Assembly: GCA_965215885.1 (NCBI GenBank) | Contig: CBDCEW010000082.1 | Coordinates: 24,728 to 88,727, forward strand | Source of the DNA: Candidatus Moanibacter sp. | Lineage (GTDB): Bacteria > Verrucomicrobiota > Verrucomicrobiia > Opitutales > UBA2987 | Direction: 5' to 3' | DNA length: 64,000 bases | Shown here: positions 4,485-10,887 of the stretch, piece by piece | Numbering within the stretch: position 1 is the first letter of the stretch | How the letters are laid out: each line of letters begins with the position of its first letter | Program-made: the position numbers and the translations under genes | Notes under the pieces: generated by a model | The model's database searches: none | What the model saw: the letters and a program-made list of their open reading frames with translations, nothing else | Told to the model about the DNA's origin: nothing

Positions 4485-4652
4485 CAGGCGGTCATTCAGG
4501 AAGCCCGCGGAAGACTTCTCTCCACTATTTCAGTGGCCAGGCGGGCGAGGAACTCCTCAATGCGGGGAGTGTTCATCAGGCGGTCATTCAGGAAGCCCGC
4601 GGAAGACTTCTCTCCACTATTTCAGTGGCCAGGCGGGCGAGGAACTCCTCAA
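4469..4652. repeat. Exact 92-bp tandem duplication (4469-4560 / 4561-4652)
   Basis: The unit TGCGGGGAGTGTTCAT...GGAACTCCTCAA occurs twice; it includes the thrS 3' end and the last 16 nt of the IS-like element. Confidence 0.95.
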
Positions 4653-6420
4653 TTGTGAAGTTTCCGTTGTTCGCTTTGTTCGTTCTTGAGCGGACCGAAA
4701 CTTCCTTCGCCTCGACCTCTTTGGCGCCGACCACGAGCATGTAGGAGACTTTGTCGGTTTCGGCTCGCCTGATCTTCGCGCCCAGTTTGTCGGATTGCGC
4801 GTCGACCGTCACTCGAATCTTCGATGCCACAAGCGTTTCCGCCACCTTTTCAGCGTAAGCATTCTGGTGGTCGGTTATGGGCAGCAGCCGAACCTGCTCG
4901 GGCGCCAGCCAGGTTGGAAAACTCCCGGCAAAGTGCTCAATAAGAACGCTGACGAATCGCTCCAAGGAACCAAAGGGAGCGCGGTGAATCATTACCGGAC
5001 GATGCGGCGAATTGTCCGGGCCGATATAAGAGAGACCGAATCGCTCCGGCAGACTGTAATCCAATTGAACGGTACCGAGTTGCCAATCACGGCCAATTAC
5101 GTCTTTGACCACAAAGTCAATCTTGGGACCGTAAAACGCAGCCTCGCCTATTTCTTCGGAATAGGGTACGCCGAGCGTTCCCGCCTCCTCCCTCAAAACC
5201 GTTTCAGCCTTATCCCAGAGTTCCGGATCCCCGGCGTATTTGTCGGATTCGCGATCCCTGAGACCGATCCGCACGCGATAATCGTCTACTCCGAGTGTAG
5301 AGAGGATGACATTTACGAGTTCGAGACAACCGGAAAGCTCAGCCTTTACCTGTGCTTCCGTGCAGAAGATATGGGCATCATCCTGAGTCATTCCGCGGAC
5401 GCGCGCCATGCCGTTCAGCTCTCCCGATTTTTCCCATCGATAAACGGTTCCGAACTCTGCCAGCCTGACAGGAAGATCGCGATAAGAACGCGGTTGGGAA
5501 GCGTAGATCTTGATGTGGAAGGGACAGTTCATCGGCTTTAACATGTATCCCTCCACATCTCCCTCCTCCAACCGGTTAGAGAGATCGGCGCAGGAGCAGC
5601 CTTCCTCGGCCAGCTTTTCGATTTCCTCGCGGTCCACCAGAGGAGGGTATTGCGAGTCTTTGAAATATGGAAAATGACCGGAGGTCCGGTAGAGCTGCAA
5701 TTTTCCGATATGTGGAGTAAAGACCTGTTCGTAACCCTGTTTTCTCAACTCTTCTGCAATGAAATCCTGCAATTCCTGCCGAATAATCGCGCCCTTTGGG
5801 GTCCACAATACCAGACCTGGTCCGACCGATTCGTCGAGATGAAAGAGGTGTAGATCCCTACCAATAATTCGGTGGTCGCGCTTGCGCGCTTCCTCCAGTT
5901 GATGAAGGTATCCGTCCAGTTCCTCCCTCTTTGGAAAAGCGGTTCCGTAAATGCGCTGGAGCTGCGCATTCTTCTCATCACCGCGATGATAGGCACCCGC
6001 GATGCTGAGGAGCTTGAAGATCTTGACCTTCTTTGTGTACTTCACATGGGTTCCGGCACAGAGATCGACAAATTCGCCATTTCGGTAGAATGAGATCGAG
6101 TCACCTTCCGGTATATCCGCCAGACGTCCCAGTTTGTATCGATTTTGACCGATCTCACGGATCAGCTTCTCCGCCTCTTCGCGCGACGTCTCGATCCGCT
6201 CAAACTTCTGATTCTCCTTGACCACCTGTTTCATCTCGGCCTCGATGCGCTCGAGATCCTCGGCAGTAAACTTGTGGTCGAGGTCGAAATCGTAATAGAA
6301 TCCGGAGTCAGTCGGTGGGCCGATATCCAGTTTGGTTTCGGGATAGAGACGCAATACTGCCGTAGCCATCATGTGCGCGGCGGAATGACGAAGTTCCTCT
6401 AATGGTGACATTGTTTTCAT
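4588..6420 (-). CDS. thrS: Threonine--tRNA ligase
   Basis: LRHSAAH, DLCAGTH, KPMNCP, AFYGPKID, IHRAPFGSLERF. Start placed at ATG 6420 because the upstream in-frame extension runs through the attenuator. Confidence 0.97.
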   Translation of the reverse strand: MKTMSPLEELRHSAAHMMATAVLRLYPETKLDIGPPTDSGFYYDFDLDHKFTAEDLERIEAEMKQVVKENQKFERIETSREEAEKLIREIGQNRYKLGRLADIPEGDSISFYRNGEFVDLCAGTHVKYTKKVKIFKLLSIAGAYHRGDEKNAQLQRIYGTAFPKREELDGYLHQLEEARKRDHRIIGRDLHLFHLDESVGPGLVLWTPKGAIIRQELQDFIAEELRKQGYEQVFTPHIGKLQLYRTSGHFPYFKDSQYPPLVDREEIEKLAEEGCSCADLSNRLEEGDVEGYMLKPMNCPFHIKIYASQPRSYRDLPVRLAEFGTVYRWEKSGELNGMARVRGMTQDDAHIFCTEAQVKAELSGCLELVNVILSTLGVDDYRVRIGLRDRESDKYAGDPELWDKAETVLREEAGTLGVPYSEEIGEAAFYGPKIDFVVKDVIGRDWQLGTVQLDYSLPERFGLSYIGPDNSPHRPVMIHRAPFGSLERFVSVLIEHFAGSFPTWLAPEQVRLLPITDHQNAYAEKVAETLVASKIRVTVDAQSDKLGAKIRRAETDKVSYMLVVGAKEVEAKEVSVRSRTNKANNGNFTIEEFLARLATEIVERSLPRAS

Positions 6421-6454
6421 TTGTATCCTGGTTAAAATAAACGGAATCTGTATA

Positions 6455-6547
6455 AAATAAAAAAGCCCAAAAGCATTTCGCTTCCGGGCTTGGTTGAGTT
6501 TTGTATTGAAAATCTGTTCAGGCAAATACAGGCCAAGCCCCGAAGCG
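6455..6547 (-). promoter_or_regulatory. Transcription attenuator upstream of thrS (terminator 6455-6491; antiterminator arms 6533-6547 and 6479-6493)
   Basis: Minus strand AAGCCCGGAAGC-GAAAT-GCTTTTGGGCTT-TTTTATTTT terminator; upstream CGCTTCGGGGCTTGG pairs at 14/15 positions with CCAAGCCCGGAAGCG, the terminator 5' arm. Confidence 0.8.
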
Positions 6548-6592
6548 GCAAGTTCGGGTCAAAGGGGTAGTGCCCTCTATCGTAGAATGCAT
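6518..6592 (-). CDS. Putative Thr-rich leader peptide MHSTIEGTTPLTRTCRFGAWPVFA (alternative in-frame ATG at 6604)
   Basis: Five Thr codons within 11 codons, immediately 5' of the antiterminator arm; TTGACT-like -35 element just upstream at the cysS end. Confidence 0.7.
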   Translation of the reverse strand: MHSTIEGTTPLTRTCRFGAWPVFA

Positions 6593-6616
6593 TAGCTCAG
6601 GCATGAAGGTGTGTTT

Positions 6617-8041
6617 TCAATGGAAGTCAAGTCTTCTCTGCAAATCGAAGCCGTCTTTTCGGTCGAGCACCTTCCACCCCTTTTTCCCGATCTCGTCCCG
6701 AAGGGCGTCGGCGGAAGGATAGTCCCTTAGCTCCTTAGCCCTCCAACGCTGTTCCGCGAGTTCGCGAATCTCGACCGGCGCCTCTGCTTCCTGCGCTTCT
6801 GTAAACGGTTTCAGCCCTAGCGCGAAGAGCAGGCAGCTAAAGGCAGGCAGCGCTGAACCAATGGCGCCACTGTCGTTCCGATTCAGGATTCTAAAGAGTT
6901 CTCCAAGGCATTTCGGAGTATTGAGATCATTGCACAATTCCTCCCACGCCTCTCCGAATAAACCCCAATCGGAGAATTCTCCGCGGTGAAGGTCACTGAA
7001 GTTCTCTTCCGAGATGTCCCTCATTTCGAGTAGTGGTCTCAGCGCCGTATCCAGTTTTTGAAGGGCGCTGGTTGCAGCATTCAAACTGTTGCGGGTGAAA
7101 TTCAAGGGTTGTCGATAGTGGCCTGAGAGCAGTGCCAAACGCAACGCCATGGGAGAAAAGCCCATCTCCAGGATCTCGTTTACAGTGTGAATATTTCCCA
7201 GACTCTTGCTCATCTTTTCACTTTCGACGCGAAGCATGGCGCCATGCATCCAATGTCTGGCGAAGGGCTTGCCGGTAGCGCCTTCGCTCTGCGCAATTTC
7301 GTTATCATGATGAGGAAAACAGAGGTCGCTGCCGCCGCCGTGAAGGTCGAATGTATCGCCAAGGTATTCCATGCTCATGACGGAACACTCTAAATGCCAA
7401 CCAGGTCGCCCTTCCCCCCATGGACTTGGCCAGTAGTTTTCGCCATCCTCCGGCTTACGTGCTTTCCAAAGGGCAAAATCCGCAATCGACTCGCGATCGT
7501 AGTGATCGGCCAGGTTTAGAGCGCCCCCACTGGTAGTCTCCTGCGATTGCAATTCTCGTCTCTCCAATCGTGTCAACCTACCGTAGCGCGGGAAGGAGCT
7601 CACTTTAAAGTAAACAGAGCCGTCGGCCGCCCTGTAAGCATAGGCATTTTCGATCAGCTTTTCGACTATTGCGATCTGCTGGGGAACGTGATCGGAAGCT
7701 CTTGGCTCAATGTCGGGGACGAGGAGGTTGAGTTTGGCACAGTCCTCGTGAAAGACCCGGGTCCACTTTTTTGTAAATGACGATAAAGGCTCCCCCTCTT
7801 TTTGACTCCGCTCGATTGTGCGATCGTCCACATCTGTGAGGTTTCGCACGTATAGCGGGTGCATACCGGCCGACTGCAGAACACGGTAAAAGACATCGAG
7901 GCTTATGAAGGTTCGGAAATTGCCGATGTGTGTGAATCCGTAGACAGTGGGGCCGCAACCATAGAATCGAAATCGTTTTCCGTCTTCTGCTCGAAGCGGT
8001 CTGACTGTTCGGGTCAAGGTGTCATAGAGTTGCAGTGACAT
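6617..8041 (-). CDS. cysS: Cysteine--tRNA ligase
   Basis: CGPTVY..HIGN, DFALWK, GRPGWHLEC, FPHHDNE, KMSKS. Confidence 0.97.
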   Translation of the reverse strand: MSLQLYDTLTRTVRPLRAEDGKRFRFYGCGPTVYGFTHIGNFRTFISLDVFYRVLQSAGMHPLYVRNLTDVDDRTIERSQKEGEPLSSFTKKWTRVFHEDCAKLNLLVPDIEPRASDHVPQQIAIVEKLIENAYAYRAADGSVYFKVSSFPRYGRLTRLERRELQSQETTSGGALNLADHYDRESIADFALWKARKPEDGENYWPSPWGEGRPGWHLECSVMSMEYLGDTFDLHGGGSDLCFPHHDNEIAQSEGATGKPFARHWMHGAMLRVESEKMSKSLGNIHTVNEILEMGFSPMALRLALLSGHYRQPLNFTRNSLNAATSALQKLDTALRPLLEMRDISEENFSDLHRGEFSDWGLFGEAWEELCNDLNTPKCLGELFRILNRNDSGAIGSALPAFSCLLFALGLKPFTEAQEAEAPVEIRELAEQRWRAKELRDYPSADALRDEIGKKGWKVLDRKDGFDLQRRLDFH

Positions 8042-8367: not shown

Positions 8368-10887
8368 TTACCCAAGTCGTGATAGCATTTCCCGTTGCCG
8401 CGAGAGCCGGCTTTCCCGCTCGTCGGCGAAGCGCTTGATGCCGTGAAATATTGATTCGGCATCGAGATTTGCCTCGGCGATGACATCCGCTTCGGTCCCG
8501 CCGGTCAACCATTGGTGATCCCAATCCGAAGTCATCGAATATTCGTCGGTGAGGGGCCCAACATCTTGAATCGGCCACACCCTGCGAGTACCGGAACTCA
8601 CGATCATGAGATCGTATCTCGCTTCCGTGGGGAGGACGGCATTGCGATATTCTTCCGGTTGGAGGGCAAAGAGCTCTTCGCTGACCGCGGCAACGATCTT
8701 TACATTTACGCCGGCCTCCTCCAGACGCGGCAAGACTCTTATCAGATTTACGGTAGAGTTCGAGCCCTGCACGACAATAGTGCCGTGTTTCGGTTTATCG
8801 GCATCGAAATCGCGAATGACATAGTGACCTTTGGCTGCGGCTTTCGGGTCCGAATCGGCGAAACCGGAGCGATCGGCTACCGGAAAATCGGGTCGCGCCA
8901 CTTCGATGATGATGACGCCGACCTTTGGATCCCGCGCCGCCACGTCAGCGGCCGCAAAATATCCGGAAGCCACATCATTGTAGTCCCAGAAACTCAAATG
9001 GATCGCCTGGCCGCGTGGAAAGAGTTTCCACACTTGAGGAGCAAAGATTCCGAAGTGGGTGCGGGCGTCGGCCGCTGTTTCAGGTCCGGAGTGTCCAGCT
9101 AGGATGTGTAGCACGCCCATACGGAAGCGGCTATCCTGGTTTTGCTGGCTCCAGACTCGCGCCGGGAGATACATTAGGGGAGTGAAGGCGCCGTAGGTGC
9201 CACTGAGGGCCCAAACGCCGGAAAACTTTCGAGGGTCAAGGGAAGCGCTCTGTCCTACCAGGCCAATGGCCGTCGAAGCGTTGCCGGCTTCCTCAATAGG
9301 CGCTTTGAATCGCGTACCGCACGGATTATTGTCCGGACTGTAGTGTCCCCAGAAAGAGCCTTTCTCCACATTTATGGAGTCGGAGAGATCGGCCGCGATA
9401 GTGATGAACCGGCTATCCGTAACATAATTCATCCATTTGATAATCTCCGAAATTGCGCGCCGGGTTCCCGCATTCTCCCCAGGTTTTTTATAGAGGCTTA
9501 TCGATATTTCCTTTTCTTCGTCCGAAACCGGGTTTCTTACCCTAACCGTCTGTGGTTCAATCGGTAAACTCTTCACAGTGAGTCTCTCATCTAGAAAGGG
9601 ATCCCCCGTGTTAACCAAACGCATCGGGAGATCATCGGGCACGGAATCACCGAGATCGACGAGACGGTCCGCCAACCAGTCGCCGAGGCTATTCTGCTCC
9701 AAAACCGACATGGCTATATCTATGTTAGTCTTGAATTGGATCAGACATTCGCGAGGATCCGCTACGGGCCCGTTTCGAATTCCTTCAAACTCGACTCCGA
9801 ATCGCTTCTCGAAAGTTTCGGCGAGCGCGACAAAGTATTCTGAGTTCATCTTGAGGGCGTAGGGGTGGCTCGGATAGCTGACCAGCTGATCACCGAATCC
9901 ATCGATCTTGCCATCCTGGGCGGTGGGCCAGTAGCCCTTCGTGGTTTGACCGATTACGATCATGGGGCGCCGGTCTTCCGGATCCCAATCTTCCATCGTC
10001 TTCAAGGCGGAAAGAATCTGGTCGTAATCGTTTCCGTTATCCAGGGAAAACACGTTCCATCCGTAAGAGGTCCACTGGTCAATAAGATCGTAGGCATCGT
10101 ACTTTTGGTCTATGACGCCGCCTATAAGGCTGTCATCGATGCCGGCATTGTTATAGGAAAGCAGAATACGAAGTCTCTTCCCCACCTGCTGTGCCAGCGC
10201 TTGGGTCTTCAACTCTTGCGCGTGTCCTTCGGTCATGGCAAATTCTCCCTCCAAAGCAAGCACTTTGAGGGAAGGATCGGCTCCGATGAAATCCCAGAAA
10301 GCTGCCTTACCCGCTGCCGTGGCCATACCGATTCCGGAGGGTCCGCCGTTGACATCGTTTGTTAAATCCGTCGTCTCCGCGTGACCGGCGAGGGAACGGA
10401 TGCCCCTGATTTTGGCTTGAGCGAAAAGGGAGTGGTCCTCCAAATCGTAGTCGCGGAGGAGCGTTTTCAAGGCACCAGCCCCTCGTCGAAATCCCATCGC
10501 ATCGATCGATAGCATTGCGATCTCGGGCGAGACGTGATAGCGGGAATCGCCGGTTGCGGCGTGTTTCCGAGCCAAGGCTTCGCCCATAATCATCCAAAGT
10601 GCGTAAGCGCTGGGAATATTGTGACCTCCCGCCAGCATGAATTTGTCACAGAAGGGATGTTTTGGTCGACGGTAGTCATAGCGAAGTCCCCCCAATTTCG
10701 GGCCGACAAGGTGCAAAGCCACATTATAGGGAGTGTAGGCGAGAGGACCTCCAAAGTGACCAGTCTGTGAGTAATTCCCCAATAGGACGAGTGTCATACA
10801 GGTCATAAACCCTATGTCTTCGATCTGTTCCCGATCGTAGGTTTCAGTACAGGGGGCGACAAGTGACAGTTGTGAATATTGTGTCAT
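8368..10887 (-). CDS. Divergent transketolase-family TPP-dependent enzyme (839 aa)
   Basis: Equivalents of transketolase motifs: TGHFGG, GGH, AGHAE, GPSGIG, NNAGID, TTKG, ADLSDS, HSGPETAADARTH. Confidence 0.75.
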   Translation of the reverse strand: MTQYSQLSLVAPCTETYDREQIEDIGFMTCMTLVLLGNYSQTGHFGGPLAYTPYNVALHLVGPKLGGLRYDYRRPKHPFCDKFMLAGGHNIPSAYALWMIMGEALARKHAATGDSRYHVSPEIAMLSIDAMGFRRGAGALKTLLRDYDLEDHSLFAQAKIRGIRSLAGHAETTDLTNDVNGGPSGIGMATAAGKAAFWDFIGADPSLKVLALEGEFAMTEGHAQELKTQALAQQVGKRLRILLSYNNAGIDDSLIGGVIDQKYDAYDLIDQWTSYGWNVFSLDNGNDYDQILSALKTMEDWDPEDRRPMIVIGQTTKGYWPTAQDGKIDGFGDQLVSYPSHPYALKMNSEYFVALAETFEKRFGVEFEGIRNGPVADPRECLIQFKTNIDIAMSVLEQNSLGDWLADRLVDLGDSVPDDLPMRLVNTGDPFLDERLTVKSLPIEPQTVRVRNPVSDEEKEISISLYKKPGENAGTRRAISEIIKWMNYVTDSRFITIAADLSDSINVEKGSFWGHYSPDNNPCGTRFKAPIEEAGNASTAIGLVGQSASLDPRKFSGVWALSGTYGAFTPLMYLPARVWSQQNQDSRFRMGVLHILAGHSGPETAADARTHFGIFAPQVWKLFPRGQAIHLSFWDYNDVASGYFAAADVAARDPKVGVIIIEVARPDFPVADRSGFADSDPKAAAKGHYVIRDFDADKPKHGTIVVQGSNSTVNLIRVLPRLEEAGVNVKIVAAVSEELFALQPEEYRNAVLPTEARYDLMIVSSGTRRVWPIQDVGPLTDEYSMTSDWDHQWLTGGTEADVIAEANLDAESIFHGIKRFADERESRLSRQREMLSRLG

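Follow-up and report, generated by a model that had tools for sequence, protein, structure and literature searches.

A probable threonine-sensing leader-peptide attenuator upstream of thrS in Candidatus Moanibacter (Verrucomicrobiota, Opitutales)

The window analyzed here is a stretch of 64,000 nucleotides from a genome of Candidatus Moanibacter sp., in which the genes for threonine-tRNA ligase (thrS) and cysteine-tRNA ligase (cysS) lie on the same strand, with cysS directly upstream of thrS and a convergent gene following thrS (Table 1). The last codons of cysS contain a likely promoter, and the gap between the two genes holds a short reading frame, a pairing arm within that frame and a predicted intrinsic terminator. 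No second full-length copy of thrS was found in the genome. Its threonyl-tRNA synthetase (ThrRS) shares 66-70% identity with records named Opitutales or Opitutia and groups among them in a quick tree. The threonine content of ThrRS is 4.6% in leader-bearing genomes versus 4.6% in the comparison, so the enzyme is not depleted in threonine. Further upstream, beyond cysS, positions 8368-10887 of the reverse strand encode an 839-aa protein whose transketolase matches are weak and far below cut-off.

Table 1. Positions of the genes and of the observed or predicted regulatory features in the window, and of two further leaders elsewhere in the genome (G000, given as contig and position).
Feature	Position	Strand	Remarks
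thrS, threonine-tRNA ligase	4588..6420	-	610 aa; TIGR00418 673 bits, cut-off 383.65
cysS, cysteine-tRNA ligase	6617..8041	-	TIGR00435 426.7 bits, cut-off 340
Likely -35 element, TTGACT	6625..6630	-	inside the end of cysS
Position of the -10 hexamer	6603..6608	-	placed by 16-nt spacing; poor match
Leader ORF	6518..6592	-	24 codons; Thr codons 4, 8, 9, 12 and 14 are ACG, ACT, ACC, ACC and ACT
CGA-ACT (Arg13-Thr14)	6551..6556	-	the same in 9 of 12 homologues; lies where the switch is predicted to flip
Predicted anti-antiterminator (1:2) hairpin	6539..6558	-	6 bp, 6558-6553 with 6544-6539; -8.6 kcal/mol
Antiterminator 5′ arm (segment 2)	6533..6547	-	leader codons 16-20; 14 of 15 paired with 6493-6479
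Shared arm (segment 3)	6479..6493	-	antiterminator 3′ arm and terminator 5′ arm
Predicted intrinsic terminator	6454..6491	-	12-bp stem, 6491-6480 with 6474-6463, and U-tract
Leader of spare metG (L247)	G000:C74:549-690	+	25-codon ORF; Met-Met-Arg(CGA) and two later Met codons
Leader of spare ileS (L255)	G000:C7:2268-2540	-	45-codon ORF, Ile cluster near its end; terminator -26 kcal/mol

A first-pass annotation of this DNA had pointed to an unannotated frame of 24 codons with five threonine codons, and on re-reading both its coordinates and its codons agree. An alternative in-frame ATG at 6604 would make the frame four codons longer, and no Shine-Dalgarno sequence is evident before it. The frame is rich in codons cognate to the gene downstream: 5 of 23 codons specify threonine, and the probability of at least five in 23 is 0.004 at the 4.9% threonine of this genome. 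When the 12 leaders found before thrS (see below) are pooled, 74 of 243 codons are threonine codons, compared with 4.9% threonine in long reading frames genome-wide; the roughly sixfold enrichment is far above that of every other residue, with isoleucine (22 of 243) and arginine (20 of 243) next in frequency. The 12 leaders are kin representing about four lineages and are not independent. The number of threonine codons per leader ranges from 2 to 10 among the homologues, and ACA, ACC, ACG and ACT are all in use. The CGA codon that precedes the last threonine codon makes up about 15% of arginine codons in the genome, and a tRNA-Arg with anticodon TCG was not found by aragorn in this assembly, which is 90% complete. 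The same aragorn output lists a selenocysteine tRNA.

It had also been proposed that a TTGACT element makes the leader almost leaderless. The distance between TTGAC and the leader start is conserved, at 37-41 nt in 12 of 12 copies, and fits a promoter; on the other side, a consensus scan called no sigma-70 promoter at TTGACT because the -10 region is poor, and no -10 consensus emerged genome-wide. TTG[AC]C was also counted upstream of thrS in 97 relatives that have no leader, and there it is most frequent at 41-80 nt from the gene, with 42 hits in two bins compared with about 4 per bin elsewhere. We infer that TTGAC is the ancestral -35 element of thrS, and that the module sits between this promoter and the gene. 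Judged by promoter spacing, transcription is predicted to start at about 6598-6594, and the 5′ untranslated region of the leader would then be only a few bases long, making it near-leaderless.

Downstream of the threonine run, the proposed pairing of a 15-nt arm with the 5′ arm of a U-tailed, 12-bp terminator holds at 14 of 15 positions, and a mostly A+T spacer of 33 nt, close to the 35 nt first estimated, separates the terminator from the thrS ATG (6420). Segment 2 begins 3 nt past the last threonine codon. The antiterminator hairpin has a predicted energy of -30.5 kcal/mol (z -4.85), and the terminator is weaker, at -20.7 kcal/mol in the direct comparison and about -18 to -21 kcal/mol over all folds. 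The duplex of the two antiterminator arms reaches -28.3 kcal/mol, and 0 of 500 dinucleotide shuffles were as good. In a scan of the whole genome, 2964 sites with a hairpin and U-tract gave 329 candidates with a leader and terminator, of which this locus ranks second; the first-ranked site lies near position 21096 of contig C45 (reverse strand), where a -32 kcal/mol duplex precedes a pilin-like gene and may be a repeat element. Translational attenuation was considered and rejected, because the hairpin does not extend to the thrS start.

The upstream region of thrS was read in 183 of 190 loci (seven were dropped for a short flank or a truncated match) and in three extra loci from a second family, f32. 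All 9 genomes of the own family (f1) and 3 of 4 genomes of f32 have a recognizable module upstream of thrS, or 12 of 13 in total. Family f1 comprises the own genome, genus g2 (5 of 5 genomes, with 5-8 threonine codons) and genus g3 (3 of 3, with 5, 3 and 2), and the leaders in f32 have 10, 10 and 5 threonine codons. In f32, cysS is also found upstream of the leader and thrS. An alignment across Opitutales had been suggested as a check on the first-pass annotation: the threonine codons do recur, in 12 of 13 genomes from f1 and f32, accompanied by one covarying change, but the module is not order-wide and was found only in f1 and f32 among the families searched. Some relatives in which cysS abuts thrS have neither leader nor terminator.

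Model-based searches gave a similar distribution. A covariance model built from ten copies has full-length matches in 10 of 151 genomes of the order, all from f1 or f32; eight of these ten are members of the training set, and G066 and G088, which are outside it, match with E-values of 3.7e-27 and 1e-15. In 151 genomes of the class, the own copy was the sole full-length match. Matches to the terminator part of the model alone (8 in 7 genomes, and 2 in the class search) were rejected, since no thrS is present in those loci. Outside f1 and f32, a pattern search across 401 genomes gave results close to those of its reversed control, and 0 of 30 fetched loci adjoin thrS. Automatic screening flagged 11 of the 183 upstream regions, three of them outside f1 and f32; on reading, L054 and L079 were rejected as likely overlaps of adjoining coding sequence, while L021 is a 7-codon frame that starts within the TTGAC element. 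Separately, a locus recorded as Dehalococcoidia (L108) has, about 245-110 nt before thrS, a short ORF whose last codons are four consecutive threonine codons and Met; a G+C-rich hairpin comes next, and its U-tract is weak. This is possibly an independent threonine leader. The ThrRS proteins of f1 and f32 are separated by long branches in the quick tree; the distribution of the module needs two label changes on this tree, and one origin remains compatible with it.

Three copies show apparent decay or have no standard start. In G006 of genus g3 (L002, 3363-3538, reverse strand), the ATG or GTG of the relatives is replaced by ACG, although the frame, five threonine codons and both arms are kept; either the start is non-standard or it was lost recently. 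In f32, the fourth genome (G108, L226) retains a remnant (E 1.6e-4) in which the start codon, the open frame and the U-tract have been lost together, as expected if a terminator before an essential gene is not sustainable without antitermination. The copies of genus g3 are doubtful as a group, since besides the ACG of G006 there are no more than 3 threonine codons in G002 and 2 in G004, and the G002 terminator is weak. The g3 leaders at L003, L005 and L126 are shortened to 11 codons, have a GTG start and a stop directly before the antiterminator arm, and carry isoleucine codons at the places of threonine codons elsewhere.

Helix statistics were calculated for seven alignable copies, leaving out the five g2 copies because of a register shift in their arm. 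Of 56 cells in the 8-bp antiterminator core, 83.9% are paired, a level reached by 12 of 500 shuffles; in the terminator core, 41 of 42 cells (97.6%) are paired, and 79 of 500 shuffles reach that level. In f32, a C-G to U-A change in the shared arm is answered in the antiterminator in three of three copies and in the terminator in two of three. This is the only two-sided change, a single event that runs through both helices. The cognate pairing of arms is not always better than pairing across species. The register of the 1:2 hairpin is not conserved, and longer 1:2 hairpins are predicted in g2 and f32.

To model the switch, the RNA was treated as unavailable for pairing as far as 7 or 10 nt beyond each A-site codon. 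In the own copy, the terminator has a probability of 0.00 with the ribosome at codons 2-12 and of 0.92-1.00 from codon 13 or 14 on, so the polarity predicted when folding with the ribosome-covered segment had been proposed was obtained. The suggestion that stalling at threonine codons frees the antiterminator is borne out in the model for Thr4, Thr8, Thr9 and Thr12, which would act as sensors, but not for the fifth, since the flip at Arg13/Thr14 places Thr14 at or past the switch point. Control codons are thus positioned in the model so that stalling frees segment 2 and transit covers it, with a caveat at the stop codon: given its finite footprint, a ribosome at the stop could allow the antiterminator to re-form (P 0.73). 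A ribosome sitting inside the 39-nt antiterminator loop would probably block this sterically.

Modeling of the homologues was less uniform. In each of the 12 copies, nascent antiterminator pairing is greater with the ribosome at the threonine codons than with it at the stop, a comparison made without a null run and in which blocking more RNA lowers pairing anyway. Compared with shuffled leaders, the nascent antiterminator passes (at most 5 of 100 as good) in 5 of 12 copies, namely the own genome, G005, G039, G066 and G088, and in the other seven copies 14-66 of 100 shuffled leaders match it. Pairing that excludes the terminator is found in the own copy and is weaker in 7 of the 12 homologues. 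For 8 of 12 copies, the equilibrium fold is dominated by the terminator at every ribosome position, which means that the switch there would need folding kinetics in which the antiterminator forms first. Ribosome-free RNA of the own copy favors read-through at equilibrium, and that of 9 of 11 homologues favors the terminator. In the own copy, a 1:2 hairpin that could give termination when the leader is not translated is represented by the 6-bp hairpin only.

Eight RNA runs were consulted as assembled contigs, which cover the leader and in two runs cross the terminator; the contigs that cross it include X4, from a related strain (6159-6575), and X6, a contig guessed to be RNA. One contig (6471-6881) stops inside the terminator, in one study only, and another (X1) spans the end of cysS and the leader, which is not proof of a single transcript. 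These contigs were set aside as evidence because assemblies give no readable 3′ end, strand or level. The differences listed for the related strain include a change in leader codon 3 and a G-C to G-U change in one pair of the terminator, and none falls in the threonine codons or in either antiterminator arm.

Taken together, the element is very probably a classical, ribosome-mediated, threonine-sensing transcription attenuator of thrS. Its anatomy, conservation and mutually exclusive pairings come directly from computation, which recovers four of the six defining features of a classical leader-peptide transcription attenuator, and the match between the enriched amino acid of the leader and the downstream gene speaks for threonine sensing. 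In this mechanism, transcription would start within a few bases upstream of the leader ATG or continue from cysS by read-through. When charged tRNA-Thr is ample, the ribosome would pass codons 13-14 and cover segment 2, then occupy the antiterminator loop up to the stop codon, allowing segments 3 and 4 to pair and RNA polymerase to halt near 6458. When charged tRNA-Thr is scarce, the ribosome would stall at Thr4, Thr8, Thr9 or Thr12 and leave segment 2 free to pair with segment 3 while segment 4 is still to be transcribed, so that polymerase continues into thrS. Transcription of thrS would thus likely rise when charged tRNA-Thr is scarce, and the additional ThrRS would restore charging.

Other explanations have been weighed against this attenuator. 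The switch could be ribosome-mediated and yet sense the general speed of translation, or threonine together with isoleucine or arginine, rather than charged tRNA-Thr alone. Isoleucine and arginine are the next commonest leader residues, g3 has isoleucine codons at threonine places, CGA is invariant in 9 of 12 copies with no tRNA-Arg(TCG) found, and a stall at any of codons 2-12 yields read-through in the model. We nevertheless regard this broader sensing as improbable, given that threonine is about sixfold enriched, that the run lies just before the switch point and that it is cognate to the regulated gene.

Still less probable is a hairpin that terminates cysS constitutively but leakily, or that acts as a fixed rheostat, with a non-regulatory ORF and upstream arm. 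The position of cysS directly upstream, the X1 contig and the antiterminators that are weak relative to shuffles in 7 of 12 copies are in keeping with such a terminator, but it leaves unexplained a threonine run that is conserved despite synonymous variation, the fixed distance from TTGAC to the leader start, the double compensatory change and the joint loss of start codon and U-tract in G108; moreover, both elements are missing from some relatives in which cysS abuts thrS. We give an equally slight chance to an RNA switch that binds protein or tRNA, through ThrRS autoregulation or a T-box, with the reading frame incidental. Both are established controls of thrS (PMC6524683 for E. coli; PMC1262725 for T-boxes on Firmicute synthetases), and CGAACT, being invariant, might serve as a binding site. 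Against this, T-box covariance models gave no match in the window at gathering score and none in three copies at E up to 1, with no other Rfam match at these thresholds either, the terminator lies too far upstream of the ATG to hide an initiation region, and the threonine run is conserved at the level of amino acids.

The threonine-sensing attenuator of thrS may have counterparts in the same genome. The upstream regions of 18 of its genes were read (13 other synthetase genes, cysS, hom and three thrC homologues), and two have a cognate-codon leader and a terminator, namely spare copies of metG and ileS, which speaks in favor of the thrS attenuator; no leader was found before hom or the thrC homologues. 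The spare metG leader also has a predicted antiterminator, and its terminator is matched by the thrS model with an E-value of 0.007 genome-wide. The spare MetG protein has 2 methionines in 483 aa, compared with 8 in 509 aa for the main copy, and a partial second copy of the gene lies at the end of contig C60. This leader is likely a methionine-codon attenuator. The spare ileS terminator matches the Rfam Thr_leader model weakly, at 25 bits, below cut-off. Tetranucleotide use on both contigs is like that of the own genome. No close orthologues of the spare genes were found, the best matches being 37-40% identical in 200 genomes of the phylum and 43-51% in 30 relatives, with none in viral contigs, and among the relatives that were read, 14 for metG and 24 for ileS, a leader plus terminator was present in none. 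Many near-identical, transposase-like repeats are spread over the contigs of this genome, including beside the spare metG and ileS.

The similar terminator of the spare metG, and its Met-Met followed by the same CGA codon, raise the idea of a cassette that can be re-specified. Under a joint reading, a portable, near-leaderless cassette would have been inserted between the ancestral thrS promoter of the order and thrS and re-specified by a swap of control codons, the invariant CGA would make the ribosome pause and thereby set the timing of the decision, and the G006 leader would start at ACG. We consider this combination speculative and, taken as a whole, unlikely.

If the threonine-sensing attenuator is confirmed, it would be a third control of thrS beside autorepression in E. 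coli and T-boxes in Firmicutes, and classical attenuation would extend to Verrucomicrobiota. It would also imply that transcription is coupled to translation in this phylum and that initiation takes place there at near-leaderless short ORFs. With copies that are intact, decaying or lost within one clade, it is a compact case for the origin and erosion of a switch. Lopatovskaya et al., 2010, a survey of amino-acid and synthetase operons, and Vitreschak et al., 2004 may list thrS; in the parts of the literature available, no threonine-leader attenuator of thrS, and no such attenuator in Verrucomicrobiota, was found.

Among known systems, the element has the same predicted polarity as E. coli thrL (RF00506), with which it shares a threonine-rich leader peptide and alternative antiterminator and terminator. 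Both thrL and pheM are controlled by leader-peptide attenuation through the translating ribosome. The general scheme is laid out in PMC2659441 and PMC6614838. Unlike thrL, the element here controls a synthetase rather than biosynthetic genes, it has a near-leaderless start and a stop codon inside the antiterminator loop, and the ribosome-free RNA of the own copy favors read-through at equilibrium. No match to the RF00506 model was found at gathering score in the window, nor in three copies (L001, L008 and L026) at E up to 1, and there is thus no sign of homology to thrL.

Attenuators of synthetase genes offer a closer functional parallel. They include predicted trpS2 and leuS attenuators in Streptomyces and pheST attenuators in gamma-proteobacteria (PMC1262725, which also describes T-boxes on Firmicute synthetases), and a histidine leader before hisS paralogues in bacilli (PMC2965389). 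In these pheST, trpS2, leuS and hisS attenuators, as here, a cognate-codon leader peptide, a terminator and an antiterminator precede a synthetase gene, whereas the amino acid, gene and phylum differ, and neither thrS nor Verrucomicrobiota is named for this mechanism in the text available. In E. coli, thrS is autoregulated by ThrRS binding to a tRNA-like leader (PMC6524683). The E. coli operator and the Firmicute T-box have in common with the element described here a feedback on ThrRS level by the state of tRNA-Thr. Whereas the operator is bound by ThrRS and the T-box by tRNA, the likely sensor here is the translating ribosome; the mechanism is a textbook one, and thrS is an unusual gene for it.
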